This document shows positions 4,311-59,200 of a DNA stretch of 64,000 nucleotides, one piece after another. The stretch is from Marsupella aquatica. Lineage: Eukaryota; Plantae; Marchantiophyta. The notes beneath the pieces are model-generated. The model saw only the letters and a list, made by a program, of their open reading frames with translations, ran no database searches and was not told where the DNA came from. Within the stretch, counting starts at the first letter, position 1. Every line of letters starts with the position of its first letter. Where the stretch lies: positions 18,838,357 to 18,902,356 of the forward strand of contig OZ316892.1 of NCBI GenBank assembly GCA_973895155.1. The letters are read 5' to 3'. The position numbers and the translations under genes were made by a program.

Positions 4311-4463
4311 AGACTTTCCCATTCTCCTAGCATCGGACTTTCCCATTCTCTCAGCATCGGACTTTCCCATTCTCCTAGCATCGGACTTTCCCATTCTCTC
4401 TCCATCAGACTTTCCCATTCTCCTAGCATCGGACTTTCCCATTCTCCCACCATCGGACTTTCC
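4311..4463. repeat. Tandem minisatellite, 24-bp unit GGACTTTCCCATTCTCCTAGCATC, ~6 copies
   Basis: Direct reading; produces the repetitive MGKSDARR ORFs in the ORF track. Confidence 0.95.
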
Positions 4464-20759: not shown

Positions 20760-20900
20760 AGGAGGGCCATACATTGTGTGCGACGTTTTACAGTTTGACC
20801 CCCCTTCCACAAAAATTTGGAAATCTTCCACCATACCCATTTAAATGGGCCTATATTTTGTCGCATGTGATGTGTCACTTCCATCGAAGTGACCCCCTCC
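20760..20900 (-). mobile_element. Old, internally deleted relative of the 328-bp MITE family
   Basis: GGAGGGCCATACATTGTGTGCGACGTTTTA... and CCCATTTAAATGGGCCTAT...TGTGTCACTTCCATCGAAGTGACCCCC match both MITE arms with many substitutions; no TSD. Confidence 0.8.
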
Positions 20901-35656: not shown

Positions 35657-36239
35657 CACTATATTCATTAAAACTGAAATTATAAAGGATATAGGGAAAT
35701 TTGGTGATTTAAAAACATAGTTTTAGGCATGAAAATTGTAAATTTGGAAGATGAAAATTCAAGCATCATTAAATGTAAATTTGGGGACAAAAAAATGAAA
35801 TTTTGAGAAAGTAAAATATTAAATTGGATGATATTAAAAAACATTTGGGTGATAAAAGTGTTCATTTGGTTGGAAAATAGATAGAATCTAGTAATAACAT
35901 ATAAGCTTGGATAGCATCTATATTCAAAACATTTAGCTTGAGTAAGATATCTAACTAAGCACCAATACAATGGAATGACTATAGTGTCTAGACAAAGTTA
36001 ACTAGGATGATATCCAACCTACTAGAAGGAATGAAATGGCATCATTTTCTAGAATTAAAATATACTAAGAAAAATAAAATAATAATTATAAGAAAGTCCA
36101 TTCAATAGCTTTGAGAGATCATAGAGTATTAATTTGATTGTCTTGTTCTCTCACTTTAGACCAACGCATGGAAATCAACTCGACCCTCTTAATCACAAGT
36201 CATTTGAGTGGAGACTTGTAACCTACGAGTTCTATCAAT

Positions 36240-39200
36240 CTACTCATCAATTATACCTTCCATGTAAATTTTGAGAGTTTTCAAAACATTCTTAGGAATT
36301 GTCAAACCTCTATCCATAATATTTTGTTCTTTAGCACCTGACTTAAACCCATACATTGCAGAATTTGCAAACTGCCAACTTTGAGTAACATTGTCAAACC
36401 CAGGATCCAGCTCCCAAGTCTTAGTGATTTGAAAGCAACGTTCATATCGAACATCATCCTTTGCATCATGCTTACCATGTTTAGGCCTCCACCATTGTAC
36501 TTGGAACATAGGACCATTCCTAAGAGGAATGCTCTCAACAGATGTTGAAGAAGACCCTTCAATATGTTGCAAATCTGTTGAGGGAACCTCATGGTTTGGA
36601 TCCACACCACCCAAAGCTCGAACCAACCAGAAACGCCCTTTGCCATTTTCCTGTTCCCATTCATCCTCTGGACGTAAAAATACAAAGTGACCTTCTTGAA
36701 TATCTTGTAGAGGAATCCAACGTGCAGGTTCTCGCTCTTGTCGTGCACCAACAAAGGGTGCAGCTTGATCTTCCATCTCTTCCATGTACTCATTTTGAAG
36801 GTCCATCATCTCTGGATTTTGAGAAGGTTCACTTGACGGCTGAGATGTCCCCAAAATCATCTTGTAACCTATGCCATGGTTAGTCTTTGGCCAAAAATCA
36901 GTGGTCAATGGCAAATGTCTTTCCCCCTCCCCTTCTATTGTAAGTTCCTCGGACAGTGCTTGCACAAGATTCTCCCAATATTTGACCAGAGGAAATCTCT
37001 CTTTATATGCTGTAGAGGTCTCATCCTTACAACTTTTCTTCAAGAAATCAATATAGCGATTAAGGAATGGGATGATTTCTCCAGCCTTCTTTGGTACATC
37101 CCCAGATATAGGTTTTGCAAATGGTTGGCCTTCCGATAAAATGAGCGCATTTGTGATGGGATCAGTTCTCCAAATGGACCTCCCCATTGCCGGAAGCCAA
37201 GGTTGCTTGACATGTGCTTTATATTGATACACTGGCACATTATCCCTCATGGAGAAAAGAAATGCCACTGGTTTTGAGTGACCTTCTATCTCTTTCACCT
37301 GGAAAGTTTTCAAATACTCCTTGTAAGATGCAACCTTTTGAATCAATCGTGGTACAGGATGAATGCTTTCACACTCCCAAACCTCAGCCATCAACCCCAA
37401 GAGGGTAGCAACCTCTTTGTATCTGACCTGTTTGGATACTTGAGAAAATAATGCATCCACGTCTTCATGGGTGTGGCCAACCATGAGGAATGACATTTGC
37501 ACAGTTTCAAACACCCCCTGCTAACAAGCTCAGTGCAAAATGCCATCACATATTGATTTTTGTTATCTTTCCCTGAATTGTCCATCTGCAACGTTAGGTG
37601 CCTTGGTACGTACTCGGGGGGGTCACTATATGGAGGGTCATACATCGCGTGCAACGTTTTAGGGTTTGACCCCCCTAACTTTAAAGTGAAAAATATTTTT
37701 TTGCAAAGCCCTTTCTTTCTTAAAATTTTGTCATTTTTTATTAAAAAACCCCTAAAAACTTTATAGAAAGTATTTTTTGCAATTAAATAGGCCTATGTGT
37801 TCTTTAAAGTCGACCAATCAATAAAACATGCCCTATGTGTTCTTCCACCAAACTTTGGAAGTCTTCCGCCACACCCATTTAAATGGGCCTATACTTCGTC
37901 GCACGTGATGTGTCACTTCCGTGGAAGTGACCCCCCCGAGGGTACGTAAGGGGTTGAAAGAGCCCCTAGTAGTCTCAGGATCATCCTTAGAACCAACATC
38001 CACTGTGCTTGACTTTTTAGTCTCCTGACCATCTTCAATGCCTTGAAATCGAACAATTGAAACATTTTTGGGTTCCAAGTAACCGGCCAGAAATGCTTCA
38101 AAGTCTAGAAGGGACTGAAATATTGGCCTAGTTGCATTCCAATTCAATCCCTCAAGAAGGTCTCCAGTTTTGTCTCCTATGTAATCCTCCAAATCTCGGA
38201 GGCATTTGGCCAAAGATGTCACGGTAAAGTCTGCATCTCCAGGCCAAAGTCCAGTCAAACTGAAATGTGCATACACTCCAGGATCTCTTCCATGGGTTAA
38301 CATCCCAGTAAGAGCAATAGGCAAAGGCTGACCACTACCAGAGAGGGATTTTGGAGTGGGGACCAACCTGAGGATCCAAGTCTTGGCTTGATCCATCTTA
38401 TCGTGAATAATGCAAAGATAGTTTTGAGGATCCTTCTTTGCAAGAACCCTATGAGCATAGTAAACATATCTTCTTGACATTTGTTCACGAAGATGTCGCG
38501 CTCTTTTCTCTTCAATCTCTGCACGCTCTTTTTTTCTCTTCTCCCGCATCAATTGATCTTTGAACTCAGTGCAAAATGTGCCCTTGGCAAATGCACTTCC
38601 CTTGTGAAAGTCAAAATTATCAAATGAGTTTTTCCAGATGTTGTACATAGTAACTTCAGTAACCTTAGCAAACCCATCTAATTCCATCTTGGTAAACACC
38701 TCTTGGAAAATCTCCTTCTTAGTAAAACAAGATGGGAGCCGATATTCAATAGTGTCAGTGCCGTTGGACCCACCATAGGGAAGATGTGGCATTGGTTCCC
38801 CATTTTGGATTAAAATGGACTCCAACAAGGCGCGAGCGTGCAAAGTGCTTGATCCTGTCTTCCGTTGTCCCTGATTTCCATGGAAACCAATTGTGCAACC
38901 AGCTTTGTATTGATTTTTGTAGTCATAGTACTTTGTTGTACTGAACCCATGCATTTTAATAAATGCATCTTTACAAACCACACGTCCCTTTAGAACAAAA
39001 AATCCCTTTTTCTCTTGACTTGCTCCTCTCTACACCCAAAGAGACTAAAGATGTGACTTGTTTTGTTGTCACTTGACATTCCATGGTATTCCCTCCTCAT
39101 TGCCTCTAAGTCCTCCCTGGGCATGTTCAAGCAACACTTCAGCTTGCAACAACCTTCTCTTTGGATGGAATCAATGGACTCCTCGTTAATTTTCAAAAGT

Positions 39201-40298
39201 GCCCTCGACTCCAAATGCCTTTTCTTCCTCTTCCTCAAGATCAACTTTTGTCCTCCTAATGAAATTGTATGGTCTTTTTGTAGGTTTACCATCACCATCC
39301 GAATCCGGATCGCCCTTAGTTCGACCCGACTCCATCCACTTCTCTGAAACTTCCTCAAGGATATCCCCAAGAAACCTTTGAGACGAAATCAATAGAAGGG
39401 ATTTGATTTCCCACCTCACCAAGCCAGGGGTACCAACACGGATATTTGGAAATAATCCGGGTTCATTGATATTCACAACAGCAACACCAACATGATCTGC
39501 ACCAAGAAGTTCATCGTCAACGGCACCTATTTCAAATGGGACCGTGATAACACTTGTTGCAACCTTTCGACAATGAGAAGCGTCATACAAATCAACCTCC
39601 TCCGCCATCCAGTTGGAACGTAGTGTAAAATCTTTTAATGGAAGATCATTGAAAATATTTGAACTACCAAACACGCCAAAATCTCGTAGAGTGCCCTTTC
39701 TAGAAACATGCGCAACATCCCAGATAACCCAGGTATGCAAGGCCTCTTCTATTGTATCAGCTCCAGGGTGCGAGTATGACAATTTTTGATTTCCCTTAAC
39801 AATATTAGATATTCTTATACTGATGCGACCAACCCCGAGTGTTTCAGTATGACAAATATCCATCGGATTTGTCTTGAAAACGACTCCATTTGCAACCAAC
39901 TGATCAAAAATGAACATCTGAACTTCATCTCCTTCCTTGAACACGTCCTCTTCAACCCTTGCATCAATTTTGGATTTATCATTTCCAACATCTCTAGCCA
40001 AAGAGAAATCATCGACATTGATTCTTCGGCGCTGAGTTGATGACCTCAAGTATGCCAATGCACAATCCCAAATCACGCAGGAGTCAATTGCCTCAGCCAA
40101 TGTAGAAAATTTGGGCGAAGGAAATGGAAGTTGACGCGATCCATCAAAACACTTTTCGATCAATACCCCAATTCGATTGTCCCCTAGACAAATGTTCTGT
40201 ATAGTATCCTGGGGGTCAACCTTTTGAACTATCCCAATTGCCGTTTCAAATCCATCGATCACCAATGACACTTCATCCCCTCGTGTAAAATTGATCAT
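36240..40298 (-). pseudogene. Sola-like/DUF7869-type DDE transposase with N-terminal repeated Tnp1/DUF8039-like domains (frameshifts, MITE insertion)
   Basis: CIIHDKMDQAKT, LTLQMDNSGKDNKN, FLMVGHTHEDVDALFS; CCKLKC Cys motif; three N-terminal repeats ending VIWD/VIWD/VRWE. Confidence 0.88.
37613..37940 (-). mobile_element. MITE copy 3 (328 bp, inverted), 8-bp TSD GGTACGTA, inserted in the transposase gene
   Basis: GGTACGTA at 37605-37612 and 37941-37948; reverse complement of copies 1 and 2. Confidence 0.97.
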
Positions 40299-40414
40299 GA
40301 TAGCGGACTATCTGTATTCAAATAAAGTTACAAATTGTTAAGTTCCCCATGTTACAATCATGTTTCAAAATCTGGACTCTCCTCCAAAAAATATTGTAAA
40401 ATCACTCAAAACCC

Positions 40415-40826
40415 TAAATACATTCAAGTCGGGTCGGAATTATTTCGACCCTCCTCCAACATTATGTCTTGAAATGATTGAATTGACTAAACATTTACAA
40501 GTCGAGTCGGAATTATTTCAACCCTCCTCCAACAATATGTCTTGAAATGATTGAATTGACTAAACATTTACAAGTTGGGTCAGAATTATTTTGACCCTCC
40601 TCCAACAATATGTCTTAAAATGATTGAATTGACTAAACATTTACAAGTCGGGTCGGAATTATTTCGACCCTCCTCCAACAATATGTCTTAAAATGATTGA
40701 ATTGACTAAACATTTACAAGTTGGGTCGGAATTATTTTGACCCTCCTCCAACAATATGTCTTAAAATGATTTAATTGACTAAACATTGATAAGTTGGGTC
40801 GGAATTATTTCGACCCTACTCCAACT
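40415..40826. repeat. Tandem array, 73-bp unit, each with hairpin GGGTCGGAATTATTTCGACCC (6 hairpins)
   Basis: Hairpin starts at 40431, 40504, 40577, 40650, 40723, 40796; a flipped partial copy at ~40920-40944. Confidence 0.95.
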
Positions 40827-42182
40827 ATTAAGTTGAAATTATGTCAAAACTATTTGTGAAACTATCTTGCTTATGCTTTTATATACCAGTTTAAAATGCT
40901 AGTTAAGATGACATAGTCAGGTCGGCACGAAATAATTCCGACCCACTTCTAGAAACTATGTTAGTAATCACATAAAGGGGTACAGTAAGTTCTACACATG
41001 CTAGACTGTGGATAAAGGTCTAGAATGAGTAAAATATATGATCTAGAACCTAATGTGTAAATCTTAATCTAGGTTTGGCTTAAAGGTATTGAATTAAATG
41101 TAGTTGAGCTAGTACTTCTAAGATAAATAAATAAAATCACTAACCTGCTCCGCAATATATCTTTGTCCACCCTTGTACAAGCTAAATGGGTACCTTGGAT
41201 GCCAGCATTGTAACTCTTAGCACCATAGTGCTCACCAGTGCCCTTACTAAACCTTGCATTCAACCATGCGGACCTAAACAAGGCACTCGGACAGAGGAGA
41301 GTCAGTGATCGTACCAATCACTGTCTAAATGACAATGAACCAAAAAATGGATTCTGGGAGGTCTATACTCAGTTTGAGAGGCAAAAAGCCCACACATTAC
41401 CCAGCACACGAGTGGACACCAACAGATCGGGCACGGGTGGATGAGGCACGCACCCAGCACACAAGTAGACATCGGATAGGGTGTCAGCCAATCACTCACG
41501 AGTGATAGGTGAGTTGCGAGCACACACCGCTGACAGCTCGGAAGTTTAAAATTGGTAGGTGAGTCGCGAGTGGTCGTGAGTGGTCACACCATCGGTGACT
41601 CACGATCACATGCACTGAGGAGGGTCTCCATCATTGGCGCGCATTGATGCCTCCGTACCCTCTCGGATCCTTGCCTCCTCGGACTCCTCGCTCGCAGGGG
41701 GTATAGGAAGGTAGGCCTTGCGCTTGAGGCCTCATTTCCTTGCCTCCCTCTTGCCTCCTCTCTCGTCTCCTCACTCCTTGCCTCCCTCTTGCCTCGCTCT
41801 AGGGCTTTTGTTTTTGCCTCGCTCTTGGGATTTGTTTTCCGCCTCGCTCTAAGGCTTTTATTTCCGCCTTGCTCCCTTCCCTTTTGGGTCGCTCCCTCGA
41901 TCATTGTTTGCCTGTTAGTGCCCTCTTGCAGCCTATGGCATTCTCCATTGCTGCCACGTGTCATCTTAAATCTCACTCGCCCCTTACAATGTCTACTTCC
42001 TCCAGTTCTGAAGCTTCCACCACCTCCGCCAGTTCTCAAGAGTCATTGAACTTCAATTATAACTCTCTGTATGAATATGACCCTGAAGACCCGGATGTCC
42101 AAAATTTGGTTAACAATGCGTTGGAGGCGTCAAAGAAAGCCCAGTTAACTTTTCCACGTAAGGCACCACCTGCTTCAACATC

Positions 42183-42853
42183 TTGCCTCGCCCTAAGGGC
42201 GAGGCAACTTTACTTTAATTTGGATTTCAAACTTCTTATTAGGAAAATTTCTATATTCCTTTGCAGTCGCCTCGCCCCAAGGTCGAGGCGACGTCTACTT
42301 CATTCTAGATTTCTTGTTGCTCCGAAGGCGTATTGGACCTTGTATCTTATATTAATAAAGGATCTTTAGCTATATTCTATTTTTTGCCTCGCTCTTGGGG
42401 CGAGGCGATGTCGTCTGCATTCCTCAAATGTAGTCTGCATTCCCAGAAGTTGCCTCGCCCTTGGGGCGAGGCGATGTTATCTGCATTCCTAAATGTTGTC
42501 TGCATTCCCAGAAGTTGCCTCGCCCCAAGGGCGAGGCGATGTCCTCTACATTCCTAAATGTTGTCTGCTTTCCCAGAAGTTGCCTCGCCCTTGGGGCGAA
42601 GCGATGTCCTCTGCATTCCTAAATGTTGTCTGCTTTCCAGAAGTTGCCTCGCCCTTGGGGCGAGGCGATGTTGTCTGCATTCCTAAATGTTGTTTGCTTT
42701 CCTAGACGTTGCCTCGCCCCAAGGGCGAGGCGATGTCGTCTGCATTCCTAAATAATGTTTGATTGCTTAGATGAGGTGGCAGGGCTAATTGCACTAGGAG
42801 CAAAGAAGATTCTGCAATCTTCTATTTGTCGCCTCGCCCCAAGGGCGAGGCAC
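42183..42853. repeat. Nine GCCTCGCCC-NNN-GGGCGAGGC palindromes in intron 1 (central six at ~65-bp period)
   Basis: Copies at ~42183, 42266, 42384, 42450, 42515, 42580, 42644, 42709, 42829. Confidence 0.95.
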
Positions 42854-44508
42854 CTTGAAAGTTTTCCACATGTCAATGTTAAAAATATGATGCTGACCAT
42901 TTTGTTTTCAATGTTTCTTACCAGGAAAAAATCTTGAGAAGCCGAAGTTAAATATTATGGACGAGGATATCAAGGACTTTGTTTTCCCTGACCAAGATAC
43001 TCCAGGATTTAGATGGGCACTAGAAGTTGGGGTGTCGGCGGAAGGCAGTCTCTTGATTTGTTTCAAGGGCCTCACAAGTCAATTGAATGACCGCAAGACA
43101 ATTGTTACTCTAGGTCCAGTCGTCCTTGTGAACACGGACAACAACCGCAATGCAACGATTATTGTTGAGTCCAATGAGAAATCTCAGTGGATGAGACTTC
43201 TAGTGCCAATAAATCTCTACTCGACTTTACTGAATGTTGAGTGGATGGCTTGATTGGAGATAAGCGTAGCTGATATGGGATTCTTCCCAGATGGAGTAAC
43301 AATTGATCAGATGTTTGAGAAGACGCATTCTCAAATAAGTGGAGTTGACCTAGTGTTTGGATTTCTCTACGTAAAGAAGCACATACATGACAATGCGGAC
43401 AGTGTGGACCCTCCGTCTACTTGGATAGTTCAAAGGATGATTGATAAGGCACATTTTTCATACGAGCAAGCAATCGACAAGAGTTTCATTTTTTGTCCAG
43501 AGTTTCAAGAGGCCGCGTGCCGGACGTGGATTTCAGAGATGAAGAAAAAAGAAGCAAAGCATAAGGCAAAGGAGAGAAAGAAGACAGTGGAAAGAAGTGC
43601 GCAATCAAAGACAGAGAAGAAACGAAAGCTTCAAGAGCCGGTTGTTCAACAAGAGAAACAATCTGGGAGTTCACGCCGTAAGAAGATGGCTAAAAAAAAT
43701 GAAGATGATGAGGGCCCCCAAAAAAAGCAGACAAAGAAGGCAAAGGTTGCGAAATCAAAACCAATGTCAGGGTCGACTTCAAACTTTGTCTTGCATCCAG
43801 AGGATGATATGTGTCCGACAGAAGGACCCAAAGAAGATGATGTGCTCAAAGGCCAAGAGGTTTTGCGTAATATTGAGCAGTATTATCCTTTTGGCATCCG
43901 CGAAGTTTTTGATATTCCTGTAAAAAGTATTAATCCGCCATCGGCCGTTTTTGTATATCGAATGTTCAATCTTTCGCATGCAATGCAGATATCAAAGTCT
44001 ATGATGAAAAACCCTGGACAGGAACCACAAGTTGCTGATTTGATTCCGTATCGCGAGAGCACTAAACAGTTGCTTCATTATGACAACACACCTCAGGATA
44101 GGAAAGAGTTTTTGATTGGTGTGAAGAAGCATGAGATCCAATTCCTTGCCATCAGTGGCCAGCATTCTGCAAGAGCTGCCCAATGGATCCAAGGGTGGGC
44201 CGAGACTGACAGATCTTGCCAACAAACTAAAGTATAGGAAAGCAAGGATCCTATCTGACCTCACTCCGAAGACAATTTTGGTTGAGCATTCAAGTTTATC
44301 GAATGCTGTCAATGATACTATGCAATTTAAGTCTTGTTTTTTAGAGACTATTGTTCATGCACGAAGGCAGTTTGAGGAGTGCGGGAAACCGCCGCGTCCA
44401 GGGATTGGGACCAATCAAAATACAGACAGGAAAAACTATCAGGTACATGTTGGAGCAACGCAAACTATTCTTGATCCGCTTTGTTTAAAGATTGTCAATG
44501 GTAAAGGT

Positions 44509-44693
44509 TTGCCTCGCCCCAAGGGCGAGGCTGCCTTTTCTTGTTTTCCTTGGTTAGAAGATTAAAGCAAATGTTTGCCTCGCCCTCAGGGCAAGGCAAC
44601 CTAGACTAGTCTCTCTAAGAATAATTCCCTAGTTCCATTTCAGTCAATTGCGGTTAGATGTAGAGGTTCACCACGCCCTTGGGGCGAGGCGGC
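44509..44693. repeat. Three more copies of the same palindrome in intron 2
   Basis: TTGCCTCGCCCCAAGGGCGAGGC (~44509), TTGCCTCGCCCTCAGGGCAAGGCAA (~44575), CGCCCTTGGGGCGAGGC (~44674). Confidence 0.9.
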
Positions 44694-47395
44694 TTAGCCT
44701 GTTTCAAACATAGGTATAAATTTTCTAACATACGCATTGTACCCTGAAACTAATATCAAGTCCATTGGATATGCAGGATTGGTTTGCCCTGGCAAAGGTT
44801 ACAATGGGGAAGTCAAGCCTAAAGAGCATTTATTGGTTACTTTTTGCCGAAGATGAGCTCTTTGAATTATGGCGGAACGTGTGTGCAAAATGGTTGAGTG
44901 GGAAGCTCCAAGATGGGGCTGGTGGGTATGGAGGGCCAAGACCCCCAAAATTGATCACTCCCGGTACCTTTCGATGCTTTGAAGGAGAGATTAGTAGCAA
45001 ACAGATAATTGAGATCTTGAAGGACGTTGAAGAGGAGCGTGTCTTGCTGAAGAAGGATATCACCAACAAATCAGAGCTTGTCGCAATGGGAGACTTGGCC
45101 CTTACAATCAAGATAATGTCCAAATTGAGAACAGTCATTATTGGCTATTTCGTGGAAAAGTATCGTGAGAAGTTTCCTGTTGGCACATCTTGGGAGTCTC
45201 TGGTGATATTGTTGCCTTCCTTGAAATCTGAGCTTGAGATGACAAAATTGAGGAGAGCAGCGGGTGAGGTTTACCTCAACAATTCATTGAAGAAGAATGT
45301 GGTCAAGGAGAGTTTCCCACAAAGTCTGATGGTCAGACTAGATGGGTTGTATTGTAAAGAATTTGGTGGGATTGGTCATTCTCGCACGGAGCCTTTCTTG
45401 ACATTTTTTAGTGAGAATTTGATGAAGACGACCGTGCCGGAAATGCTACAAGAGCCTTCGCCTTTGTGTCCTCTTGCCATTGTTGACTTCAGTAGGCTCC
45501 GACAACATGTTTGGACCGATGCTGAAATTATTGCATTACTGCAATACATTGTGGATCTTCCAAGAAATCCAACAATTGTTGTTGTCATGACTGTGCATCC
45601 GGGGCCACTTGCTGCAAACATTTTGAGTGCCCTTAGGAAATTGCAACATGAAAAGGGAATGGACATCCACGTCGACTACGGGAGCTATCGACGGAGTGAT
45701 ACACCAGTTCCAGAGGGCTTACTTTTCAGTTGTGGTATGGAGGAGATAATCTTTGCAGGAATCACCACTAAGGAGAAATTTGATTGGAAGCAAGTGTTCA
45801 GGCCTGGATTTAATTGCCAATTTTCTTACAATTTGGCGATCGACCCTGATTTCCAAGTGGAAGACAAGACGGAGAAGCGAGATAAGAATAAGAGTAAGAC
45901 AAGTAAGGAGACAGAGACTGAGTCAACTTCGGCATTTCACATTGGAGACTTCTTACGAAAGGCTCCCATGTTTGAGATGGTGGGAAGTAGAGGTGGCTTT
46001 GTGAATATTCACGCTAAGCCAAAATGTATGCTGCAGAGTATTATTGAATTTTTTTCGGCTGAAGGGGAGACTATACTTGACTTTTTCTCGGGAGGACAGG
46101 TTATGAAGGTGTCATTGTTGTGTTTCAGAGAATGTTTTGCGTATTCAGACACTGAGGATGAATATGATTTCACTCAGGCATATGGAAGGGTTCTTTGCGA
46201 GAAAGTTCCTTCCATAATGAGTGACCGGATGGGCGGTTCCAAATTTGGTAGGGCCCGCGATGGGGTTTCCGAGCATGTTGGTGCCAAAGAAGGCGTAGAC
46301 CAGGGCGAAGATGATATTGAGGAAGGAGAATTGGGTCACGACACAGACGACATGGTCACCCAAAATTTGGATGAACGTGGAACACAAGTGGTAGGTATTC
46401 CCTACTTTGGTGTGGGGTTGGCTGATGTTGTGGGTTGACCTGAGGGCGACCCACCAAGAAATCCCTTTGCCGATGTAGAGAATTGGATGCACCAATCGGA
46501 CCCAGATCTTACATCGTCCACATCGGACGCACATTGGAAGGCAACCGCAGATGGTCTAGGCAATATTGACGCAGTAGAATTGGGAGAAATGTCAGACATT
46601 GCGCTTGCAAAGGAGGATGATCGTCAAGTACCTGAGACCGCTGCAAATGAAGAAGAGAAGGCAGGTGCTTCAAATCCTCCCCTGTCTCCTCTATATTGCT
46701 CATCAGAGACTAAATTGGTTTTTACAAGTGCTTCTACATGAAGCCCCGTAGTATTATCATTTTCACAAAATTCTGGATCCAAGATCGGCAGGACTGGGTA
46801 TATGAAAACAGTCCGTCCTGCAACTCATTTTATATGGAGAAATGGACCAAAGGTTGGAATGATAGAATCACTAGACGATGCTCCAAAGATAATGGCAAAA
46901 TCAGATTACAAAAAACTGAACTTGAGACTGAGCCCAGTTTTTGCACCCCCATCCTTTGAAGAGCAACTTCCCAGTGGTATCAATTCCGAGATACAGAGTG
47001 TTCTAGGTGATCAAACAATAGATGAATTTGGGCATTTTAGCATTGGAAATTATTAGCCCTTTCTTTGGTTCTTGGTATTTTAATGACAATCTAAGCTTTA
47101 TCTTTGTAATAATATACTTTTTTACAGACCAAAGTTCCGTCGTAGAATCTCCTTCCTCAAAGGATTTTGTCGGCATTCCCTTGGAAAGCGTTGCTGTGGA
47201 GGAAGGGTTTGACCCAGGTATACTTTGGATCTAAAAAATGGAAATTGAATGTAATTAATGTTTTTCTAGGAGGGTCGCCCCAGGGTCGTTCCTCTCTACT
47301 TTCAAATGCTATAACAAATTTTGTTTGATTTCAAATTTTGAGAGTTTTCCTCCGTAGTAATTGTTTAAACTTTGAGTCGCATTGACTAAGGGCTT

Positions 47396-48451
47396 ATGTT
47401 AATGTTTCCAGAATTCACTCCAATACTACACTCTCCGATCCGGCGAAAGCTCTTGGTTCTTGACCTTAACAAGATTTGTTGGGATTGCATTAAGACCAGA
47501 AGCTCAGGACCATGGCGAAATCAGACAAGTTTACGTGGTGTGCACTGGGGGAGACGTGGAGGGTTTAATTTCATGTATGTGGAGCGCCCATACCTCCACA
47601 AATTTCTATATGCAGCTTTCATGGTTTTTGACGTCGCAATTTGGACCTGTGCAAGGAGGCCAAAAACAATGGACTTAATGGAGTTGATTTTCACTGAGGA
47701 GGAGCGACAAAAGTTCAAGTTTGTCTTTACTCAAGAAGATACCTTTGATAGTTGCATCCAAAGGCCAGATATAACAGATGGGAAGGCCAATTTACTTCTG
47801 AAGAATTTGCAAACCATTTGGGACCGTTTTCCAGAAAAATATGATGCTTCTAATACAGTTCTTATTGATGATTCTCCATTGAAGGCATTTTTGAATTATG
47901 ACGTGAATGGATTGTTTCCAAATCCATTTACTCACACAGCTTCAAATGACACTTTTTTGCCCGAGATATTATGGCCGTATCTTTGCAAATTGAGAAAGGC
48001 TTACTGCGTTCAACATTATATCACTGTCAACAATCCAAAGTGGTCTGTTTTCAATTTATTAACAAGCAAGGAGGATCATGCTGCCATCTATGCTCTTTTG
48101 GAACAGAAGTGGGGAGATTGTCGTTGTATCCATAGGGAGTTTGGAACCATCTTGGATGTGACTCCTGAAGAGATTCCTTGGGACGGAAAGAATGAGGTGC
48201 AGCATTACCCACCACTGGAGACGTGGACCACGGATGAGATCAAAGAAACTACAAACGTAATACTTGGAGACAACTATTCTGGTCCTCATACACAAAATAG
48301 AAGGCATTTTATTTGGAAAGTTCTCAGAACTAGGGATCTCACCAATAAGTTTAAGAACCACCATGCGAGAGATACTTGCAACCGTGACATCCCCCATGAT
48401 AAATCAGGAAGCAGACTTTCTTGTTCAAATGAGTTTTGTCTTGATCATTAG
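47396..48451 (+). CDS. FCP1/SCP/NIF-family HAD phosphatase-like ORF (possibly the last exon of the upstream gene)
   Basis: RKLLVLDLNK, ERPYLHKFL..FDVAIWT, KNLQTIW..YDASNTVLIDDSPLK; motif I reads DLN rather than DLD; intact 351-aa frame. Confidence 0.85.
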   Translation: MLMFPEFTPILHSPIRRKLLVLDLNKICWDCIKTRSSGPWRNQTSLRGVHWGRRGGFNFMYVERPYLHKFLYAAFMVFDVAIWTCARRPKTMDLMELIFTEEERQKFKFVFTQEDTFDSCIQRPDITDGKANLLLKNLQTIWDRFPEKYDASNTVLIDDSPLKAFLNYDVNGLFPNPFTHTASNDTFLPEILWPYLCKLRKAYCVQHYITVNNPKWSVFNLLTSKEDHAAIYALLEQKWGDCRCIHREFGTILDVTPEEIPWDGKNEVQHYPPLETWTTDEIKETTNVILGDNYSGPHTQNRRHFIWKVLRTRDLTNKFKNHHARDTCNRDIPHDKSGSRLSCSNEFCLDH

Positions 48452-48920
48452 GAGATAGGGTTGCTCTAGTGCCTACCTTGAATTGTACATTCATATTATG
48501 TCTTGAAAGGATATGTTTTGAACATGTAGGATAAAGTAAATAATTAGGATATATGCTTAGTGTGAGGCTCTCTCACTGGACTGGACAATTTAATAATTAT
48601 ATAGTGGGTCAATCTCATTTTGACCCTTGATTTATGACCATCTATATTTTTTAATTTATAGATGGTCTGAGTGGTATTGGCCTCTGATTTTTGGACTAAA
48701 TTAAATTTACTCTAATTTTTAAATTAATTAGAATATATGATTTAAGTTATTATTAAACATTTGGGTGAAAAAAAACAAAATTTTGGGCGTTCAAAAGTGT
48801 ATATTTGGGCTGAAAAAAATTAGCTTTTGGGAATGCTTTAATAGAAATTTGGCCTTAAAAAAAATAACTTTAGGGTTCATCTTATGGACTTTTAAAAGTA
48901 CAGTTTTAATGAATATAGTG

Positions 48921-49642: not shown

Positions 49643-51250
49643 CTAATCATCTCTTGTTTCCTCAACACTTCCAACAACTCCTGAAGAGTCAAGTCCTATG
49701 ATTTCCTCCTCTCCAACTCCTATCTCTGGTATTGGTAGAATGGTCTCTTGAACATCAACATCTAAATCCACCATGCCTTTGCCATCATCTTCCTCAATGT
49801 TGTCCACCAGGTTTAGAATTCTCCCTTTCAAGACACTGCTCTGGCGCTCATCAATTTCTACAGTAACACAATGTCTTCCTTGTGCCAAAGAGGAAGACAA
49901 TCCTGTGCCTGACCCTGAACAAATATCTAGCACCCAGTCTCCAACCTGGCTAAAGTGGGTAACTTCCCAATCCAATAACACTCTTGGCTTTTGGTAAAAG
50001 TTCACCATCTTATTGTCCCCGTTGTGTTTCAACTTATTGGTCATAGCTGGACACACAACCACATTATTTTGAGACTCATTAGTCTCAAAATTGAAATGCT
50101 CCAAAGACCGTTTCCCATCCTGACTATGAAAGCCAATGGTGAAACACTCAAAATTGTTGTTAAGCCTTGCACCTCCTGCATTCTTAACATTGTCTTTCAC
50201 CCTGCAAAAACCAAAACTTGCATTATGGATTTGTTTCAAAATCAAACATCATGAAATCATGAACACCAAAAAAACATATTCACCTGTTGAAATGTTTCTT
50301 ACCAAATACAATTCTGGAAACCACCATTACACTCAGCTTTCAAGACAGTCTTGACAACATCATACTGGTCAATACTATGATGAATGATAATTCGCCAAAG
50401 ATTTGCCTTGGTGACAACCTTGAAGGACTGAACCATCTTGGTCACCTCTTCCACACCCCATCCAACATTGTCTTCGTGAAGACAAGCAGTCATTCCAAAC
50501 CCATAAGGAATATCTGCCAAAGCCAATGTGTAAGCTCGTAATGGGATTACCTCGTGCAACCGCTGAGCATCGTGTGTAAAGATATCATAGTACACATCCC
50601 CAAACTGTGGATGCTCAAAAGCATTAGGATGAAGTTCACTTCCCTGGGTCTCTTGGCAAGATTTCTTCATTGCCAACTAGTTCTGTGCTTGTGCAATATG
50701 TGCATTGAACTTATCTGGGAAGGACTTCAACTCTTTGCTTTCTTCATTCTCTCCCTTCTTTTTCCCGGAGATGCTGTCTTTCTGAGAAAACAAAATTGGG
50801 TACATGAGATTCCTACATACTTAAGAATAAAACTGTAAAACAAATGCTCAGTCAATCTCAAATAAACTTACCCAAGTCTGGAAGACAGGAACAAAATTCT
50901 TCAGCACATTATCAGTGCAGTGTTCTAGGTACTTGGTTTTGCAATTCTTCCAACTCTCTTCGTGAAGACAGGTAAGAAATGCTTTTTGAACTTGCATTTG
51001 GAATTTGTGTCGTTGAAATTCCTGCCCCATCTCTTGAAGAGATAATTCCTTTGCCAAAACCCTTTGTAGCATTGGACAGATCTTGTCCGGATCTTTCAAT
51101 GCTTGCATGTGTCTCCACTCAGTCAACTTCATATCCTCACATAGCATTTTAGCATCTCCAGACTTGGACATCTTTTTCTTGGTCTTATCTCCTTTCTGTC
51201 CTTTTATCTCACAATTCTCCCATCTGTCAAAGATCTGTCGTATGAAAGAC
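49643..51250 (-). pseudogene. Beta-class N4-cytosine/N6-adenine DNA methyltransferase gene (intron-containing, 5' part cut off by CACTA insertion)
   Basis: LALADIPYG (motif IV), CIW|VKDN across in-frame intron 50202-50302, FYQKPRVLL (X), WVLDICSGSGT (I), GRHCVTVEIDERQ (II); another intron ~50782-50871; one stop upstream of the catalytic domain. Confidence 0.88.
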
Positions 51251-53803
51251 CACTAGTAGAAACCGGGGCAATTTAGACCAAACCTTATAGGACTAAGGCC
51301 ACTAAGTCCTTTTTTACAACTTCAAATGACTCGGAACCATTGCACCGGTTCACATGAACACTACAAAAGACTGTGAGTGCTTTTTGGTTTAGGATAAGAC
51401 TATGAAAAGTTTCCACGTACCCTACTTTGTGAAAGGGTGAACACTCTCGCACATGAGTGTTGTAGGGTTTAGTTGTGGGCCTCAATTTGATAATGGGCAT
51501 ATGGGGGGTTTACGTCCGCTATATTGAACACGTACAAACTCACTACATGTCTAAATGCCCTAATGTCTCATATACTCCATAGTGGGTTTAGGGGGGGTTT
51601 ACGTCTCAAGGGTGGGCCGGTTATATGTGAAGGGTGTGGGTGGTCACCACTAAAGGAGGTTTAGTAGGGTTTATATGTCAAGGGTGGGCCGGTTAGGTCT
51701 CAAGGGGGTGGGGGTCACCAACATCCTGTTCTATTCAAGTTTGCCAAGCCAAGAATCGGGTGCACGCATACCCAAGATTTTTGGGCTAGCATGATTTTCA
51801 ATTCACAGTCGGCTCTACTTCACCAACATCCGGCTTTATTGAACTTTTCCAAGCCAAGAAAAATTTGCTGAAATACCCAAGATGGCCATGCAGTAACACT
51901 TCAATGTAGTGGTGTCTCACTTTGGGTGACACTCAACGGCTCACTCAAACGGTAAGGTTGAGTGGCTCCCCTTAATGACTTAAGTCCCCTAATCTAGTAA
52001 AGAGGCACTAAACTGGTCTTTGGGAGTGACTTTGGAGTGTTTGGGCCATCGTCATTGGACGCAAAACGTGAGGGGTCCAAGGTTCGGGGTTTTACGTTGG
52101 ATTTAGGTTTTGGCTGTAGGGCTAAGAAGGTTGTGGCTGCTGCAACCTTCGATCGGAGCTAGTTGTGAGGGCTTCATTCTTCGGGGATTTTTGAGAGAAG
52201 GGCCTCTCATTGTTGCACAATTCTCCTGACCCGCACTGCCGATGTGTTGTGGCTGCACCCAGAGCGACTTGGTGTTGCCATTTGTTTCAAGAAGGTTGTG
52301 CTACCATCGCGAGCTGTTGAGGAGAGGGCCAGTTGCTTGCAAAAGGATTTGTAGATTGTGTCGGAGGTCTAGATTTCTCCATTTCTACCAAGAAATGACG
52401 TGCAACAAGGCAATGTGGAGCGCAACGGCAATGTCCAGGGTAGTCCTGAGTGCTTAGGTCATTCCATTCTAACAGGAGAATGGTCGTGCGGCAGGGCAAT
52501 GTGCAGCGCAACGACAACAATGTCGAGGGCACTCCTTTAGTGCTTAGGTTTTCAGTGAGTTGCAGTTCGGGAGGAGCTATGACCTGGGGACTGAGGTGCT
52601 GAGGGTTTAGCTGAGGGGAGGAGCTGTGATCTGGGAAGGTGTTGCGGTGCCAAGGTCTATTGTAAGGTGAGGTGATTGTTGCGGAAGGTGGACATTGGAG
52701 TTGTGAAGGCGCTGTGGAAGGCGACCACTGCGGAAGGTGGACTACAGTGGGTCCTTAAAGCTTGCGGAGGCATTGAAAGGAGGCTGAGCAAGGAGGCAAT
52801 CGTTGCTGCTGCGGAAGGTGGACATTGGAGTTGTGAAGGAGGTCGTGGAGCTTAAAGAGCAGTTGCAAAATCGGGAGCCGGTTGTTTGTTAGGAGGAAGC
52901 AGTTGACAGTGCTGCCATTGGTTATCAGTGTCATCAGCCAAAGGTTAGTCCCGGCCATGCAGCTGAAAGTGCGCTTCACTAGTAGAAACTGGGGGGTATT
53001 TAGACCCCATTAAACGACTATTCAGTACCGTATAGGACTTGGAAACGACTGGGAAGGACTCCAGTCCTTTATAGGACTGCGAGTCGTATGTTTTGTTACT
53101 ATAATCAACTGAGTCCTTTATAGAACTGGTTTATAAGTCGTTTAATAGACTGGATTTTCAGTCTATTTTAGTCTTTGTGTGGGTAGCTTTGGTGAGTCGT
53201 TTTCAGTCTTTTATGGGCTGAGATGGTGAATCGTTGGGAACGACTAAAAAGGTTATGGAGGGTAGTCTTTAAATATACTTTGTGGGGTATGTATAAGTCT
53301 TTCATGTCAACTGGATATGAGTGATGAAGACCCCACTATACTACTTGGAATGAACCCACTCTTGTGCACAAATAACATATTGCATTCATGTTTTATTGTG
53401 TACTTGAATGAACTCACTCTATAAGTTCACCATTCATCATGTTAACATTAGAATACATAGTTTCAGAAAGCCATCTTCTATACCATGTACACTAATATGA
53501 ATTCACAGATTCAAACTTCATAGACTACAAAGAAGGTCACAAAGTATTCCTCTATACCATACACACTAATACTGAAATGATACAAAACAGATTCAAGTAT
53601 CATAGACAATCACCATAGAGCCATAGTTTGACATCAATCAATTGTTTCATACATACAGAATTCAGAAATATCAATGTCACACACAACGGCTCCTTCATCC
53701 TCTTTACCAAATGGAAAAATTGGTACAGATATTTCTTGGATCTTTCCAAGGCAATGTCAAAATATGACACAATTCACATGATTCTATCTACACTTGCATT
53801 CAG

Positions 53804-54430
53804 TCACTGCAGACTAACACACTCTGATGGCCAGAGCACAAGAGATCCTACTGCATCTGCAATTATTTCCTGAGGTGGATCATCGTCTCTATTCGGAAAT
53901 GGCAAATTACAATCAGATACAATCACTGTAGTCAACAACACTACTACATGGTCATCCGGGACCACTTTGCCATGGAATTTTGCATGATCCGGTCGCAAAA
54001 TGCCTGTACCCACACATACCTGCGAGTCATCCTCCCATGATAGAAGATTATGGACTGGCTCTGCTGTGGCTATCACCTCCACCTTACCCTGGCTGTTTTT
54101 CTTGGCTTTCCTGGGTGGCTTATACATGACATTATTCATACCTTGGTTGCGAGTCATGACTTTGGCACGAGTGTTTTGTGCTGGTGATCGAGAATTGGCT
54201 ACACTCTTCTTCAAAGAATCTGCAAGGTCAGACTCCGGGTTGAGGTGGAAATGCCTCATGCAAGGGCCCTCACATATGGCTAAGCCACCACCATCGTCAC
54301 AAATGGCACAACAATGAGCTGCCTTCTGGAAAATCTGACTTGCGGAGAAGTTACTACCATCTGGCCCAACTACACCTGTGTTGCTCACCTCTGTCCCCCG
54401 CTTCTTGGCTCGGATTTTAGGGCGTGCCAT
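53804..54430 (-). CDS. Chimeric ORF: truncated PHD finger (EDM2/NSD-like) fused in frame to the CACTA Tnp1/DUF8039-like domain
   Basis: CAICDDGGGLAICEGPCMRHFH followed by sequence homologous to element A 10797-11220; junction at ...AAAGAATCTGCA (~54224). Confidence 0.8.
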   Translation of the reverse strand: MARPKIRAKKRGTEVSNTGVVGPDGSNFSASQIFQKAAHCCAICDDGGGLAICEGPCMRHFHLNPESDLADSLKKSVANSRSPAQNTRAKVMTRNQGMNNVMYKPPRKAKKNSQGKVEVIATAEPVHNLLSWEDDSQVCVGTGILRPDHAKFHGKVVPDDHVVVLLTTVIVSDCNLPFPNRDDDPPQEIIADAVGSLVLWPSECVSLQ

Positions 54431-56215
54431 GCCTACGCCTGAGACAGATAGTACAATTTAGTAGAGTGCACAGACAATACAATTTAGTGCAGTGTACAAA
54501 AAGTACAATGTAGCATATAGACTAGAGTGGCAATTGCTACTGCAATGAAATGTTCATACACATGTGCAGAGTAGACATACTTTTTGGTTTATTGAGCCCA
54601 CACTAAAAACTGATCCCCTCGTACAATAGCTCCACCTACACCTCAATTTTGTGGCTATGATTCACCAAAGGAGATCTGCAACAAGATTTAATGCATTTGA
54701 ATCACATATAACAGTCGTGACATGTAAAACATGCATTTTTTGAACAGGATTGGTATCAAGCAGTGTGATCAGGGTTGTAATTTATACATCCTAAATAGGC
54801 TATGATAGTGAATGAGACAAATAAGTTAGGCATAAATCACTTTTTCCAGGTTATCACATGGCCCATTAATTCCAGTCTTTGAAAGGAGACTTTTAAGTGA
54901 GCTTGCTAGCCTCTTAAATTAGGATATTGTACTTAGTGCAGCCATAATAGGATAAGTTATGTACTGTTGACCGTAAACCCTGGACCCAAAATTGGTCATA
55001 ATTCAAAATCTTAAGTAAATATCCTCTCTGTTCAAGTCAAAGTGTTAAGTTATAGGTCAATGGTCTCTGGTCTGTGCATGCGGTGTGACAAGTGGTCTTC
55101 TACAGCGTGTGATCCAAACATGTGTAGACACCAAAGTGACCGGTGGTGGGGTCTGGGAGGGTAGGACAAGTGACATCGCCAGGCACACTACAGGATGGCG
55201 AGTGGTTCCAGATGATACATTGTGCTCTGTGAAAAAACCGACATCCAAGAGAACGGTCATCCAACTCTAGGCCAGAAGCCCTACAGGCAGGACAGTCATA
55301 CTGGCAACTGTGCACACACCCTTGGGCCCTAATTTGTGGCGGGTCATGTACGAGAGACAAAAATACCAAGGATGTTGGGAAGGGTGGAGAAGCAAGTACA
55401 GGGCGGCTGTAGTTATTCCTGGCAACAACTGGGTACTCAAAGTACCATGCAGACTGGGCTGGAAGGATCCCAAGTCTGACATACTCAAGGTGCAACATCT
55501 CTGCCTTGCGTGCAAGCCGCACATGTTCAGCATTGCGGGTCCTCACCATAAGTGTTGCTTTTGTGGAGTGTCGTGTGTTCACGTCCTCTGATAAGCACCT
55601 TCGATCAGCAAGGTGAGCAGGAGCTGTACTTGCCTCACCAACAGCAACCAACCTTAAATTATCAGTTCCCACTCACTGTGTCATTCCATTGGTTCCAGCT
55701 AGGGGTCACAATGTAAACATAGCATGAAACACTCCTAATCAACTTGCTTACAAACTACAATATCCAGAAAGAGTGAAAGTCTCACCCTCTAGTGAGCAGC
55801 AGAGAGGTAGTTCACTGGATGTGTTGATGTGCAGTTAAACCTCCACTATTGCTTACTTCCGGTGTATGCTGCTCAGTCGGAGACATATTAGTAGCAGCAA
55901 ATTGCAAATAATGGCCATAAGCAAACCGTGAGAGTTTGCAGAATGCTACGACAACTATTCATCCATCACAACAGTGCTCCACAGGAATGAAACCAAGCAA
56001 AATTTGGTGACCTCGGCCAATGACAAGGCCAATGTAGTTCACAATCCTTGACCGATCAGGATATGGATTGGAATTACAATTAGTCAGCTCTTCTTCTTCT
56101 TTGGTTTCTAACTCTGGGGCAAATGAGCATGACCAGGGAATTCTCTGAGAAATAGAAGTGCACAGGGAAAATGAAATTGGCTCATTGAGTTGCGCAAGAC
56201 CGCCCATTGCAGCAT
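54333..56215. repeat. Left arm of a >=1.9-kb inverted repeat (partner 62126-64000)
   Basis: Near-identical reverse complements, e.g. ORF pairs 55057-55260/63073-63276 and 55959-56255/62134-62520. Confidence 0.95.
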
Positions 56216-59200
56216 AAACAAACTCATGAAGTGGCAGAAAGGATAGCGTCGCCACAAGCGCAAAATCCCGACAGGTTTAAGCTGCAAAAAACTAACCCAT
56301 CCAAATGTGATTGCAATGGTGTTGAGGTCGTCTATTCACCACCCCACTCCACCGTGGGAGCATTGGGCACAAGGCATGTTCGGATCCAGGGAGGAGAAAA
56401 ATAGTCATGTGAAGCAACAAGTGTGGAGAGACCAATAAGTAAACAAAAATAGGGAAGAACAATGCGGTGATCATGAGCAGCAGGAAACAAGGAAGTTGAT
56501 TTGGGAGGGATTGTAGGGACAGAGCTTTTGGTGGGCTTGGCTGCGCGTTCATATCGGAAGATAGATGCGAGAGAGTGTGAAGAGGGTGGCAACCAACAAA
56601 GGCAGTGGCAAGCAAGCAAGCAATACACGATGATAGCGGCAATCGGCAATGGCGGTGGGAGGCAGCAATAGGCTAAATGACTATTCAGTACCAATCCGCA
56701 GCTCGTCCGATGAGAATGAGTGACATGAGGAAAATGCCAACACACTGACCCACTACCAAGAAGAACGAAAACCAATCTCAACCACCCTCTATCATCAATG
56801 ACAGGACATATATTCAAAAATCCAAGCTGCAATTGACGGAAACAATAACATAAACAGAATTCTGAACATAAACTGCTCATGAAGCTTTCGGGATCATATA
56901 TTCCAAGAGCAAATGTGAACATGCCAATATATGAAAGCTCTGGCATATAGGGCATTGCATTCCATAGAGACGTCTGCACCAAAGAGCTTGGAAGCAATTG
57001 CCTATCTGCTGGAAGCAGGAAACATATATGTAAATCCCAAGCCCATACTACATTGGAGATGATCAGCTCACTCAGACAGACATTGCATTTTGATTAACCA
57101 AATGTAGCAGGCTAACAGAGGGACGAAGGATAGGGCCAACACTAATGCACAATAGTGAACAACTATGATTAACCAAATGTCAGTAGCAGGCCAGCAGAGG
57201 GACGGAGGATAGGGCCAACACTAATGCACAGCTGTGAAAGACTGACAAATAGAAAGCAAACGAGAGCTTCAAATATAGAACATCAAACCTTCAGCAGCGG
57301 TCAATGGGCTTTGATTTACAGGTCGCCTGGCTTGGTCCCTTGTCGCAGCTCGCCCAGCTCCACAACACCGTAGACAAGGAGTTGGCTGGTCCAATTTCCA
57401 CCATGCAGCGTTAGCAAAACTGCAATGCTTGATCTTCGCCCTCCGCCCTTTGCCCGAACCCCAAAATAGACCTCAAAGTAGAAAGCCAGCAAAGGGTTGA
57501 GCAGAAATCCCTAGAAAATCCCGCCTCTAAAGTCCATTGCTCGTGGTTACAAATGATGGCAACGGAACATTCGGGCAACCCAACAGTTGAACTGACCTCA
57601 ATCACACCTGCACCTGGTTGGCAGCTCCGCAGACACTAATTGTAGCTCTAGTTGAAGACATCATTTGAACAGCAAATCAGTCACAGCTCATGAATCCGTT
57701 CAGACTAGCATCATGGGTACTACGTCGGAGCACTGCGCAAGAAGCCAGGAAAAAACTGCAAACATGGGGACCCACAGGCAAGAAATCTGGACCTCCGACA
57801 CAATCTGGAAATCCTTTCGCAAACAACTGGCCCTCTCCTCAACAACTTGCGATGGTAGTAGCTCGCAATGGTAGCAGCTCGCGATAGTAGCTCCCTTCAA
57901 CAAGCTTGGTAGTGCGATAGGAGCAACAACTTACAGAGAAGACAATGACCTCCCCTATGAGACTGATTGAAAGACCTCAATACAATTACTGAAGCAGGGA
58001 TACAGAACGGGGAGAAGCCTTTCGCAGTTTGGGACGGCGAGAAGTGTGAACACTTAGGGCATGGCCCACAGGAAGGTCACTCAGTCCGAATGAGCCACAA
58101 GCTTATCGCCCAAAACCACGCAAACCTGAAGTTGAAATTAGCACTATGAGGTAGCAAGCTACAAAATAGCATTTCCCACATTCTTAATGCATGGCATCGG
58201 AGCTCATTCCGCCTAGAAAACCAAAGCCACTACCAAAACTAACTTGCAAATGGAAGTTTGGACTAACCAGGGTGATTCAGGGCAGTTCAATGTCACTATG
58301 GCAGGTGCATTGCTGCTCGTAGCTGCAATGTACCTTAGCGCTCCCGGTCCCTCCACGACTGCAACTTCCCAAGACCGGTCGGTCCCAGCCAGTCAGTCTT
58401 CTCTGAATCTTGGTGCCACGTTGTCTCAATCCGAAGCTGTCAGCTCTCAGGCAGGAGACAAATCTCCGCTTGCCTTCGCGCCAAAAGCTGTCACTGGCCT
58501 CAAGAGCCTCTAAGGCAATGTCCGCAACGCCTCAATGTCTCCAACACCTCAATGTCCTTACCATCAAGCGCTTCTCAGGGATGCCTCAATGTCCTTACCA
58601 CCTCACGACTGTCAAGGTCCCAAACCAGCGCAAACCACTTGCTGAACTCCTTTGTCCAAACAATTGTAAGGGGCATGCAGGTAGAACTGTCAAAAGCGCT
58701 CGCAGGAGTGGATGGCAACAATTGACTACAATCGCCTCCCAGCTTCCCTCGCAAAATGTTAACCCTAAACCCTACTCGTATGCTCCACTCATAGAAGCAA
58801 AGCACAATGTTCTGTCGCACAATGGGGCCCGAACACAGGGGCGCAAGTACTCGATAGTTCCCTTCACAAAAACCCAATAATCACCTGATGACCAAAGCAC
58901 ACTCACCCTAACCCAATACTTAGTGCAAGCAGTCATGTAAGCTCGTTTCCGTTGAGGTGACCCGTTGAGCATAATAAGTACGTTTGTGCCAGAGTGTTAG
59001 GCAACACACAAAACTAAAGAGGGTTAAGGATAACTTTAAATAAATCCCTTTGGTGACAAAGTCATGGCCACTTAATTAGTTGTGGGCCCCCCTAACCCTC
59101 CCCCCCCCCTTGTGGAATTAATCTTGGATCAAAAGGCACCATCATTTACACTCAAATCAATCAAGTTGTGGACTGTTCATTGTGTCAATTAGTGCCCATG

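Follow-up and report, generated by a model that had tools for sequence, protein, structure and literature searches.

Bacterial ParB-parS systems use clustered palindromic sites. The closest transposon counterpart is Plavaka (EnSpm/CACTA) of the red alga Bostrychia moritziana, which in the accessible text of its description carries a PF01555 methylase gene, a ParB-like gene and adjacent tandem inverted repeats (10.1101/2025.02.11.637652). There, PAG3 combines a ParB-like domain with a 2OG oxygenase, PAG2 combines a PF01555 methylase with a SET domain, and binding of the ParB-like protein to the inverted repeats of its own element is put forward as a proposal. VANDAL/VANC is an anti-silencing system of Arabidopsis for which the available portions of two reports show binding and demethylation by VANC (PMC5735166, PMC10398659); VANC21 binds a motif multiplied in tandem within introns and other non-coding DNA (PMC5735166). 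Spm TnpA derives from the tandem HTH domain of a transposase and binds clustered motifs at the termini (accessible part of 10.64898/2026.08.24.746577). Finally, DUF3723 genes are conserved cargo of the giant fungal Starship transposons, tyrosine-recombinase elements for which the accessible text describes no cognate palindromes (10.1101/2021.12.13.472469).

We analysed a 64-kb stretch of the liverwort Marsupella aquatica, called the window throughout, in which a DNA transposon carries palindromes in the predicted introns of an accessory gene. It resembles Plavaka in being a large DNA transposon with accessory genes, in having ParB-like and PF01555-type domains, and in the tandem inverted-repeat arrays at the ParB-like gene. 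In contrast to Plavaka, it has a land-plant host, its ParB-like and methylase-like domains occur in one protein, the methylase motifs are degenerate, and no 2OG or SET domain was detected; its transposase matches DUF7869 in Pfam, a likely further difference; the Plavaka repeats adjoin the ParB-like gene, whereas the liverwort repeats lie inside its predicted introns. As in VANDAL/VANC, a DNA-transposon accessory gene is accompanied by a short motif amplified in intronic tandem repeats. However, the VANC21 motif is the 9-base YAGTATTAY and the liverwort motif is a 21-bp palindrome that is a candidate site only, the Mutator-like VANDAL transposase family differs from DUF7869, and no Pfam match to a Mutator-like transposase or a VANC-type accessory protein was found in the transposon proteins. 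The likeness to Spm consists of CACTA termini, a second gene and clustered motifs (candidate cognate sites in the liverwort transposon), but the liverwort sites lie in the interior, and its second gene is of a ParB-like/methylase-like type. As in ParB-parS, palindromic sites are clustered at a gene with a ParB-like domain. Unlike in bacteria, this is a eukaryotic gene predicted to be spliced, GQHS stands in place of the GxxR box, no ParA ATPase was found among the eight ORF stretches of the transposon (Pfam), and neither family scans nor profile comparison found a helix-turn-helix or other DNA-binding module (the structure models being of low confidence). With the Starship DUF3723 genes it shares the status of transposon accessory gene, and DUF3723 clusters are the nearest language-model neighbours of its ParB-like domain. 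The feature may work like the parS/ParB, PAG3 or VANC systems, which is a candidate likeness and not membership.

New features are that the host is a land plant, that the transposase is of the DUF7869 type, that a disarmed methylase domain forms part of the fusion and that the palindromes are intronic. The accessible texts of PMC4738411, PMC5751038 and 10.1101/2021.02.12.428880 contain no description of this transposon family, and none was found in a wider search of mainly open-access literature. No mention of DUF7869 was found in the literature searched.

The transposon and its accessory gene

The features of the transposon in the window are as follows.

35657..48920, no strand assigned: 13.3-kb multi-copy DNA transposon with CACTA...TAGTG termini, a decayed copy
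36240..40307, minus strand: DUF7869-family transposase-like gene, in pieces (PF25273, E 2.3e-22)
37607-37940: 329-bp MITE interrupting the transposase-like gene
40425..40944, no strand assigned: second, unrelated palindrome family GGGTCR-N9-YGACCC, upstream of the transposase gene
41739..41874, plus strand: partial sites with a 25-bp period in a single orientation, without the right arm, upstream of the accessory gene
41935..42157, plus strand: predicted exon 1 of the accessory gene, with a putative start codon
42158..42924, plus strand: predicted intron 1, GT..AG, phase 1
42185, 42269, 42386, 42452, 42517, 42582, 42646, 42711, 42831: palindromes 1-9, in predicted intron 1
42384-42753, plus strand: 65-bp tandem array of 5.7 copies carrying palindromes 3-8
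42925..44442, plus strand: predicted exon 2, with the N-terminal domain, a lysine-rich linker and the ParB-like domain (SGQHS)
44443..44776, plus strand: predicted intron 2, GT..AG, phase 0
44511, 44577, 44670: palindromes 10-12, in predicted intron 2
44777..47056, plus strand: predicted exon 3, with, in order, a helical region, the methyltransferase-like domain, an acidic linker and a small C-terminal domain
47390..48451, plus strand: NIF/FCP1-like phosphatase cargo ORF
48606..48626, no strand assigned: second palindrome family, a lone exact match within the transposon, some 300 bp from its right end

CACTA/EnSpm transposons typically create a 3-bp target-site duplication. The transposon has a perfect 20-bp terminal inverted repeat, and no clean target-site duplication was seen at its ends (TAT on the left flank, AAT on the right). 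The transposase-like gene is divergently oriented relative to the accessory gene. Among the transposon ORFs, Pfam returned DUF7869 only, with no match to an EnSpm transposase or TnpA family, and no relatives of the transposase were found in viral contigs. Contigs matching the transposon numbered 2,890, 12,093, 384 and 437 in four sequencing runs. Three of these runs cover all 30 bins of the transposon, and in X2 and X3 depth drops in the two flanking bins, run depth over the transposon not being a copy number. In other copies, contigs have their start at 35655 and their end, or a joint, at 48921. The contig counts, coverage and end joints together indicate a multi-copy family in at least three organisms.

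The prediction of both introns of the accessory gene draws on GT..AG ends, on agreement in reading phase and on protein homologues; their phases join three reading frames. For intron 1, the evidence consists of its splice signals, its phase and homology that starts near 42925. For intron 2, the exon-2 relatives P0001 and P0002 stop one residue beyond the position equivalent to the donor, exon-3 relatives start at the position equivalent to the acceptor, and in locus L001 this position is likewise occupied by a GT..AG intron. P0114 and P0118 are continuous proteins across this position, fusing the ParB-like and methyltransferase-like parts; a search aimed at longer homologues with a fused exon 3 returned nothing, which is weak evidence, the fusion being present in these two. 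A different fusion is seen in the Riccia protein P0097, in which a NIF/FCP1-like phosphatase is joined to the methyltransferase-like domain. The accessory gene is broken in the window copy by stops at 43251, 46436 and 46739 and by a frameshift near 44211. Protein relatives with a named source come from Calypogeia fissa and Riccia sorocarpa, both liverworts.

Distribution and variation of the palindromic sites

The initial annotation reported twelve GC-rich palindromes, nine in intron 1, three in intron 2 and none in exons, and our search of the whole window gave the same counts, although not all sites are exact. The motif GCCTCGCCC-N3-GGGCGAGGC gave 12 matches at up to two mismatches (seven exact, four with one mismatch and one with two), against a chance expectation of 0.00 for the 21-mer from 100 dinucleotide shuffles of the window. 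Nine sites fall within 42185-42851 and three within 44511-44690. Even at five mismatches, no 21-mer site was found in the window outside the two predicted introns, and the 51 kb of the window outside the transposon likewise contain no full site. The wider consensus of the sites is a 27-bp palindrome. In the window, the 9-base arm GCCTCGCYC of the 21-mer is found 24 times, 23 times in the accessory-gene introns or just upstream (41791-41849). The spacer is 3 bp long in 12/12 palindromes and its letters vary, and a symmetric double change of both arms was seen at none of the 12 sites. The palindrome set is real and, within the window, specific to the transposon.

Palindromes 3-8 are units of one 65-bp array, so the set amounts to about seven independent sites. 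The centres in this array read TTG, TTG, CAA, TTG, TTG and CAA between flanks in the same orientation, which implies at least one micro-inversion and suggests that the palindrome is able to drive small inversions. Within intron 1, remnant similarity is retained among the flanks of site 2, site 3, the array and site 9 (z about 3-5 for several pairs), whereas no pair of flanks between intron 1 and intron 2 exceeds z 3. Thus, the initial description of sites in tandem context agrees with the 65-bp array, and that of sites with unrelated flanks applies between the introns but not to several pairs within intron 1. The spacings of six independent sites showed no significant helical phasing (p about 0.28). 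A reading as a Helitron end (a hairpin with CTRR after it) was rejected, as the flanks of the sites do not have CTRR in common. One stretch with a motif match was found in viral contigs.

The centre flip feeds an explanation in which the sites are a neutral by-product: a GC-rich hairpin that binds nothing would have been amplified inside introns by slippage as well as tandem duplication and kept symmetric by template-switch repair. Half of the sites (6/12) do lie in one array, intron 1 flanks retain remnant similarity, and a TTG<->CAA exchange within identical flanks is a sign of hairpin-driven inversion. Contig joints also connect one motif site with another (42404-42708, 41737-44583), some copies have lost single sites, and exons would exclude such insertions regardless of function. 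However, the same arm sequence is retained by both introns, which lie 1.7 kb apart and have unrelated flanks around the sites, and it recurs upstream of the gene; template-switch repair should presumably change both arms at times, which no site exhibits; and the CpG-bearing arms are less variable than their surroundings. We consider the neutral origin unlikely.

The variability of the arms was assessed by a base-level comparison of copies in intron 2, with three covering runs and 40 of the 41 variant positions, all within the intron. At six of these, two of them in arms and four elsewhere, the window copy disagrees with each of the three covering runs, and these six were excluded from the first count. 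With these set aside, and among the same 40 of 41 positions, 1/54 arm positions, 1/9 centre positions and 32/271 other positions were variable. The difference between arms and other positions gave p 0.015 by Fisher's test, 0.035 by random placement and 0.09 by circular shift, the last value falling short of significance. When the six were retained, the counts for the 40 of 41 positions were 3/54 in arms vs 36/271 elsewhere; at the two arm positions set aside (44593 and 44670), the other copies are closer to the consensus palindrome. Spacer variation among copies was seen at position 44587, and site 12 retains one mismatch among the variants listed. Conserved stretches of intron 2 also reach past the arms, for instance 44638-44669, which is free of variants among those listed. 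Arm conservation in intron 2 is therefore in the expected direction but modest.

Copies also differ in the number of sites. Loose contig ends in X3 and X5 reveal that a 66-bp unit around site 11 is repeated in other copies, which indicates that intron 2, too, grows by tandem duplication; the spacer of this unit bears no relation to the 65-bp repeat of intron 1. In a minority form present in X3 and X5, 44449-44532 is replaced and site 10 is absent, and in one X5 contig site 11 is missing 11 bases. Single palindromes are dispensable in some copies. In a fourth organism (X7), one contig of depth 3 has a half-site near the end of intron 2, a weak observation. L001, a relative with 31% identity whose contig excludes intron 1, has an intron 2 of 109 nt in which no palindrome occurs.

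Upstream partial sites, the second palindrome family and folding

Half-sites had also been noted upstream of the ATG, and we located TTGCCTC there at 41740, 41751, 41778, 41789 and 41814. The sequence GCCTCGCTC lies at 41791, 41816 and 41841 in the same region, whose partial sites have the left arm of the palindrome. The second palindrome family is repeated in tandem, as six 73-bp units and a further copy in inverted orientation. As the transposon has two motifs and two proteins that may bind DNA, the pairing of motif and protein has to be drawn from proximity, and on this basis we infer that the intronic motif belongs with the accessory gene. The alternative pairing would have the DUF7869 transposase bind the intronic palindromes, for transposition or for a TnpA-type self-activation, and leave the accessory protein to bind the second family or nothing. 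Transposases and Spm TnpA can activate their own copies in a sequence-specific manner, according to the accessible part of 10.64898/2026.08.24.746577, and the transposon indeed has CACTA ends and two palindrome families. TnpA-Spm1, however, binds termini in the same text, whereas the palindromes lie 4.2-6.5 kb from the nearer end; they cluster in and before the accessory gene, while it is the second family that is found beside the transposase gene, with a single copy close to the right end. This alternative appears distinctly unlikely.

The palindromes could instead work at the RNA level, as hairpins of the pre-mRNA that influence splicing or give rise to small RNAs. Every full site would be transcribed if the gene model is right, and intron 1 folds far better than its shuffles (z -16.9), as must be the case for repeated palindromes; the excess is modest for intron 2 (z -3.1). 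The upstream partial-site region, on the other hand, folds no better than shuffles (z +0.89), and Rfam returned miRNA-precursor models alone, far under their gathering scores (best 36.5 vs 88 bits). Moreover, it is the sequence itself that is retained and not pairing alone, with 0 compensatory changes among the 12 sites. We regard an RNA role as very unlikely. Identical arms despite diverged or unrelated flanks, together with the lack of symmetric double changes, favour recognition of the double-stranded sequence by a dimer, and so do the fixed 3-bp spacer with free letters and the upstream left arms that do not fold. The pattern fits better with a dimeric sequence-specific binder than with an RNA hairpin.

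The accessory protein and its candidate role

The ParB-like identity of the middle domain of the accessory protein, as first proposed, agrees with its language-model neighbours and was not confirmed by family, profile or fold tests. The nearest neighbours are DUF3723 clusters (0.97); with DUF3723 left out, they are ParB_N and DUF6551 clusters (0.88-0.90), ParB_N being found on 35% of members. The best Pfam match of this domain is DndB (E 0.052, in 1/6 proteins), no match to DUF3723 was obtained from Pfam, and neither NCBIfam nor PHROGs gave a ParB match. Viral loci were the first source of ParB for profile comparison, and no ParB was found in them. A profile built from 41 ParB-like proteins of bacteria, gathered in the vicinity of parS matches, yielded a probability of 0.11%, below shuffles, and an AUC of 0.72 that was equalled by 8/40 shuffles; it aligned the N-terminal part in the expected register, not significantly. 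Structure models were of low confidence (pLDDT 35.9 and 47.0), Foldseek with these models found nothing at E 0.001, and a wide fold search, mainly of the N-terminal domain, pointed to a PH/PTB-like fold below threshold (Z 6.0), a result compatible with a ParB fold in the middle domain. ParB proteins possess a GxxR nucleotide-binding box. SGQHS occupies this position in the window copy and in 8/8 relatives, with the register set by eye and the equivalence putative. No loci with ParB-like relatives were found in metagenome, viral or genome contigs, and phages gave no match; a tblastn match to a plasmid was rejected because it runs antisense to annotated genes. The label "ParB-like" is a lead only, based on language-model neighbours and a motif register set by eye.

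The methyltransferase-like domain is homologous to beta-class N6/N4 methyltransferases (PF01555 at E 0.0022, below the cut-off of that family, with relatives reaching E 6.3e-5; M.RsrI at E 3.9e-6 over the motif I region). Its catalytic motif IV, DPPY, is present at the presumed position in none of 22 sequences, which instead read DFSR-like (22 of 28 aligned rows, those covering the column), and [DNS]PP[YF] occurs in 0/118 proteins examined. The SAM-binding motif I (FxGxG) reads DFFSGG, one residue shorter than DFFAGSG of M.RsrI. A search for related loci with the methylase-like alignment gave eight, of which L001 alone is a family member; the other seven matched over 46-58 residues at 33%. Judged from these motifs, the methyltransferase domain is probably enzymatically dead. 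The loss is family-wide and not a decay of the window copy, which makes it more likely that the protein binds than that it methylates.

The palindromes had been proposed as binding or methylation sites of the element's own protein. Methylation targets, marked with 4mC or 6mA as a self mark by the domain of the element, could be expected from its homology to beta-class N6/N4 methyltransferases (PF01555, M.RsrI), and liverworts do have active 4mC enzymes (accessible text of 10.1101/2021.02.12.428880). Against this stand the lack of a DPPY-type motif in 22/22 sequences and in 118 proteins and the one-residue shortening of motif I (FFSGG). A 21-bp site is also long for a methyltransferase target. 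Such a mark, or alternatively sites for a host transcription factor, is the least probable explanation among those weighed here. The absence of DPPY in relatives makes binding sites plausible and methylation sites unlikely, and the binding half of the proposal is further in line with sites that are specific in the window, conserved arms, a fixed spacer and partial sites that do not fold.

Our preferred interpretation, which we hold at about even probability, is that the palindromes are double-stranded DNA binding sites for a dimer of the accessory gene's own product, in which a putative ParB fold is joined to a probably inactive methyltransferase domain. Each 9-bp arm would be read by one subunit across the fixed 3-bp spacer, and the sites would have been multiplied by local tandem duplication and retained as their spacers diverged. 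The bound accessory protein may mark copies of its own transposon family, acting by binding and not by methylating the palindromes. Its most likely role would be to regulate its own gene and to keep the CpG-containing sites out of host silencing, in the manner of VANC and TnpA. A fuller version, which is tentative and well short of even probability, is that in liverwort transposons two disarmed bacterial folds, a ParB-type domain lacking its arginine and a methyltransferase lacking its catalytic motif, were combined into a self-recognition and anti-silencing factor that docks on family-specific CpG palindromes multiplied within its own introns and shields its family from 5mC silencing, a VANC-like factor of independent bacterial origin in early land plants.

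Because a defined 21-bp candidate site and a candidate protein are at hand in a lineage with Marchantia genetics and methylomes, this idea is directly testable. Were it true, transposons would have one more, independent way of escaping silencing, and a further sequence-specific DNA binder with a long target would be known.

Palindromes and internal deletion joints of the element

Besides the intronic motif, the 21-bp palindrome with 12 sites in predicted introns 1 and 2 of the accessory gene, the element carries a second palindrome family, GGGTCR-N9-YGACCC:

40425-40944, tandem array with a 73-bp unit, upstream of the transposase gene
48606-48626, single exact copy near the element's right end

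The extended arm begins with GTCG-NN-TCG in both families, a resemblance that may be due to chance. Rare deletion joints detected in sequencing run X3 (41737-44583 and 42404-42708) connect motif-bearing sites, and the intronic motif therefore doubles as a breakpoint of internal deletions.

Other mobile elements and genes in the window

The following further features were identified:

3473-3801, 13354-13682 and 37607-37940, 329-bp MITE bounded by terminal inverted repeats and flanked by 8-bp target duplications
20761-20897, diverged copy of this MITE
4312-4463, 24-bp tandem array with its own palindrome at the array end
5392-8200, further DUF7869 transposase-like gene (E 2.9e-48); this array lies upstream of it
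8195, 19534, 51251, 52977 and 59750, several elements with CACTAGTAGAAA ends that belong to another CACTA family
49646-51252, minus strand, second beta-class methyltransferase-like gene, in pieces (PF01555, E 4.8e-7; CcrM-like, E 1e-7)
54333-56216 and 62125-64000, inverted repeat pair (1.9 kb, 97% identity)

The MITE is hAT-like. Three copies within 35 kb are 99-100% identical, a sign of very recent activity; one of them splits the element's transposase gene. No intronic motif was found near the further DUF7869 gene and its array. The second methyltransferase-like gene, truncated by the end of the CACTAGTAGAAA element at 51251, presents a DIPY motif and a seemingly intact glycine motif and is unrelated to the methyltransferase-like domain of the accessory gene. 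The 1.9-kb inverted repeats probably represent another element, either its two ends or a pair of copies.

Accessory protein and phosphatase cargo

In the model of P0001, an exon-2 relative of the accessory protein, the N-terminal domain (residues 19-168; window 42925-43450) gave a best PH/PTB-like match below the tool's threshold (Z 6.0, rmsd 3.3, 90 residues), and this predicted similarity is a lead only. The element also carries a cargo gene:

47390-48451, NIF/FCP1-like phosphatase

In the Riccia relative P0097, such a phosphatase and the methylase-like domain form one fused protein. A link of this cargo to regulation of the RNA polymerase II CTD is possible.
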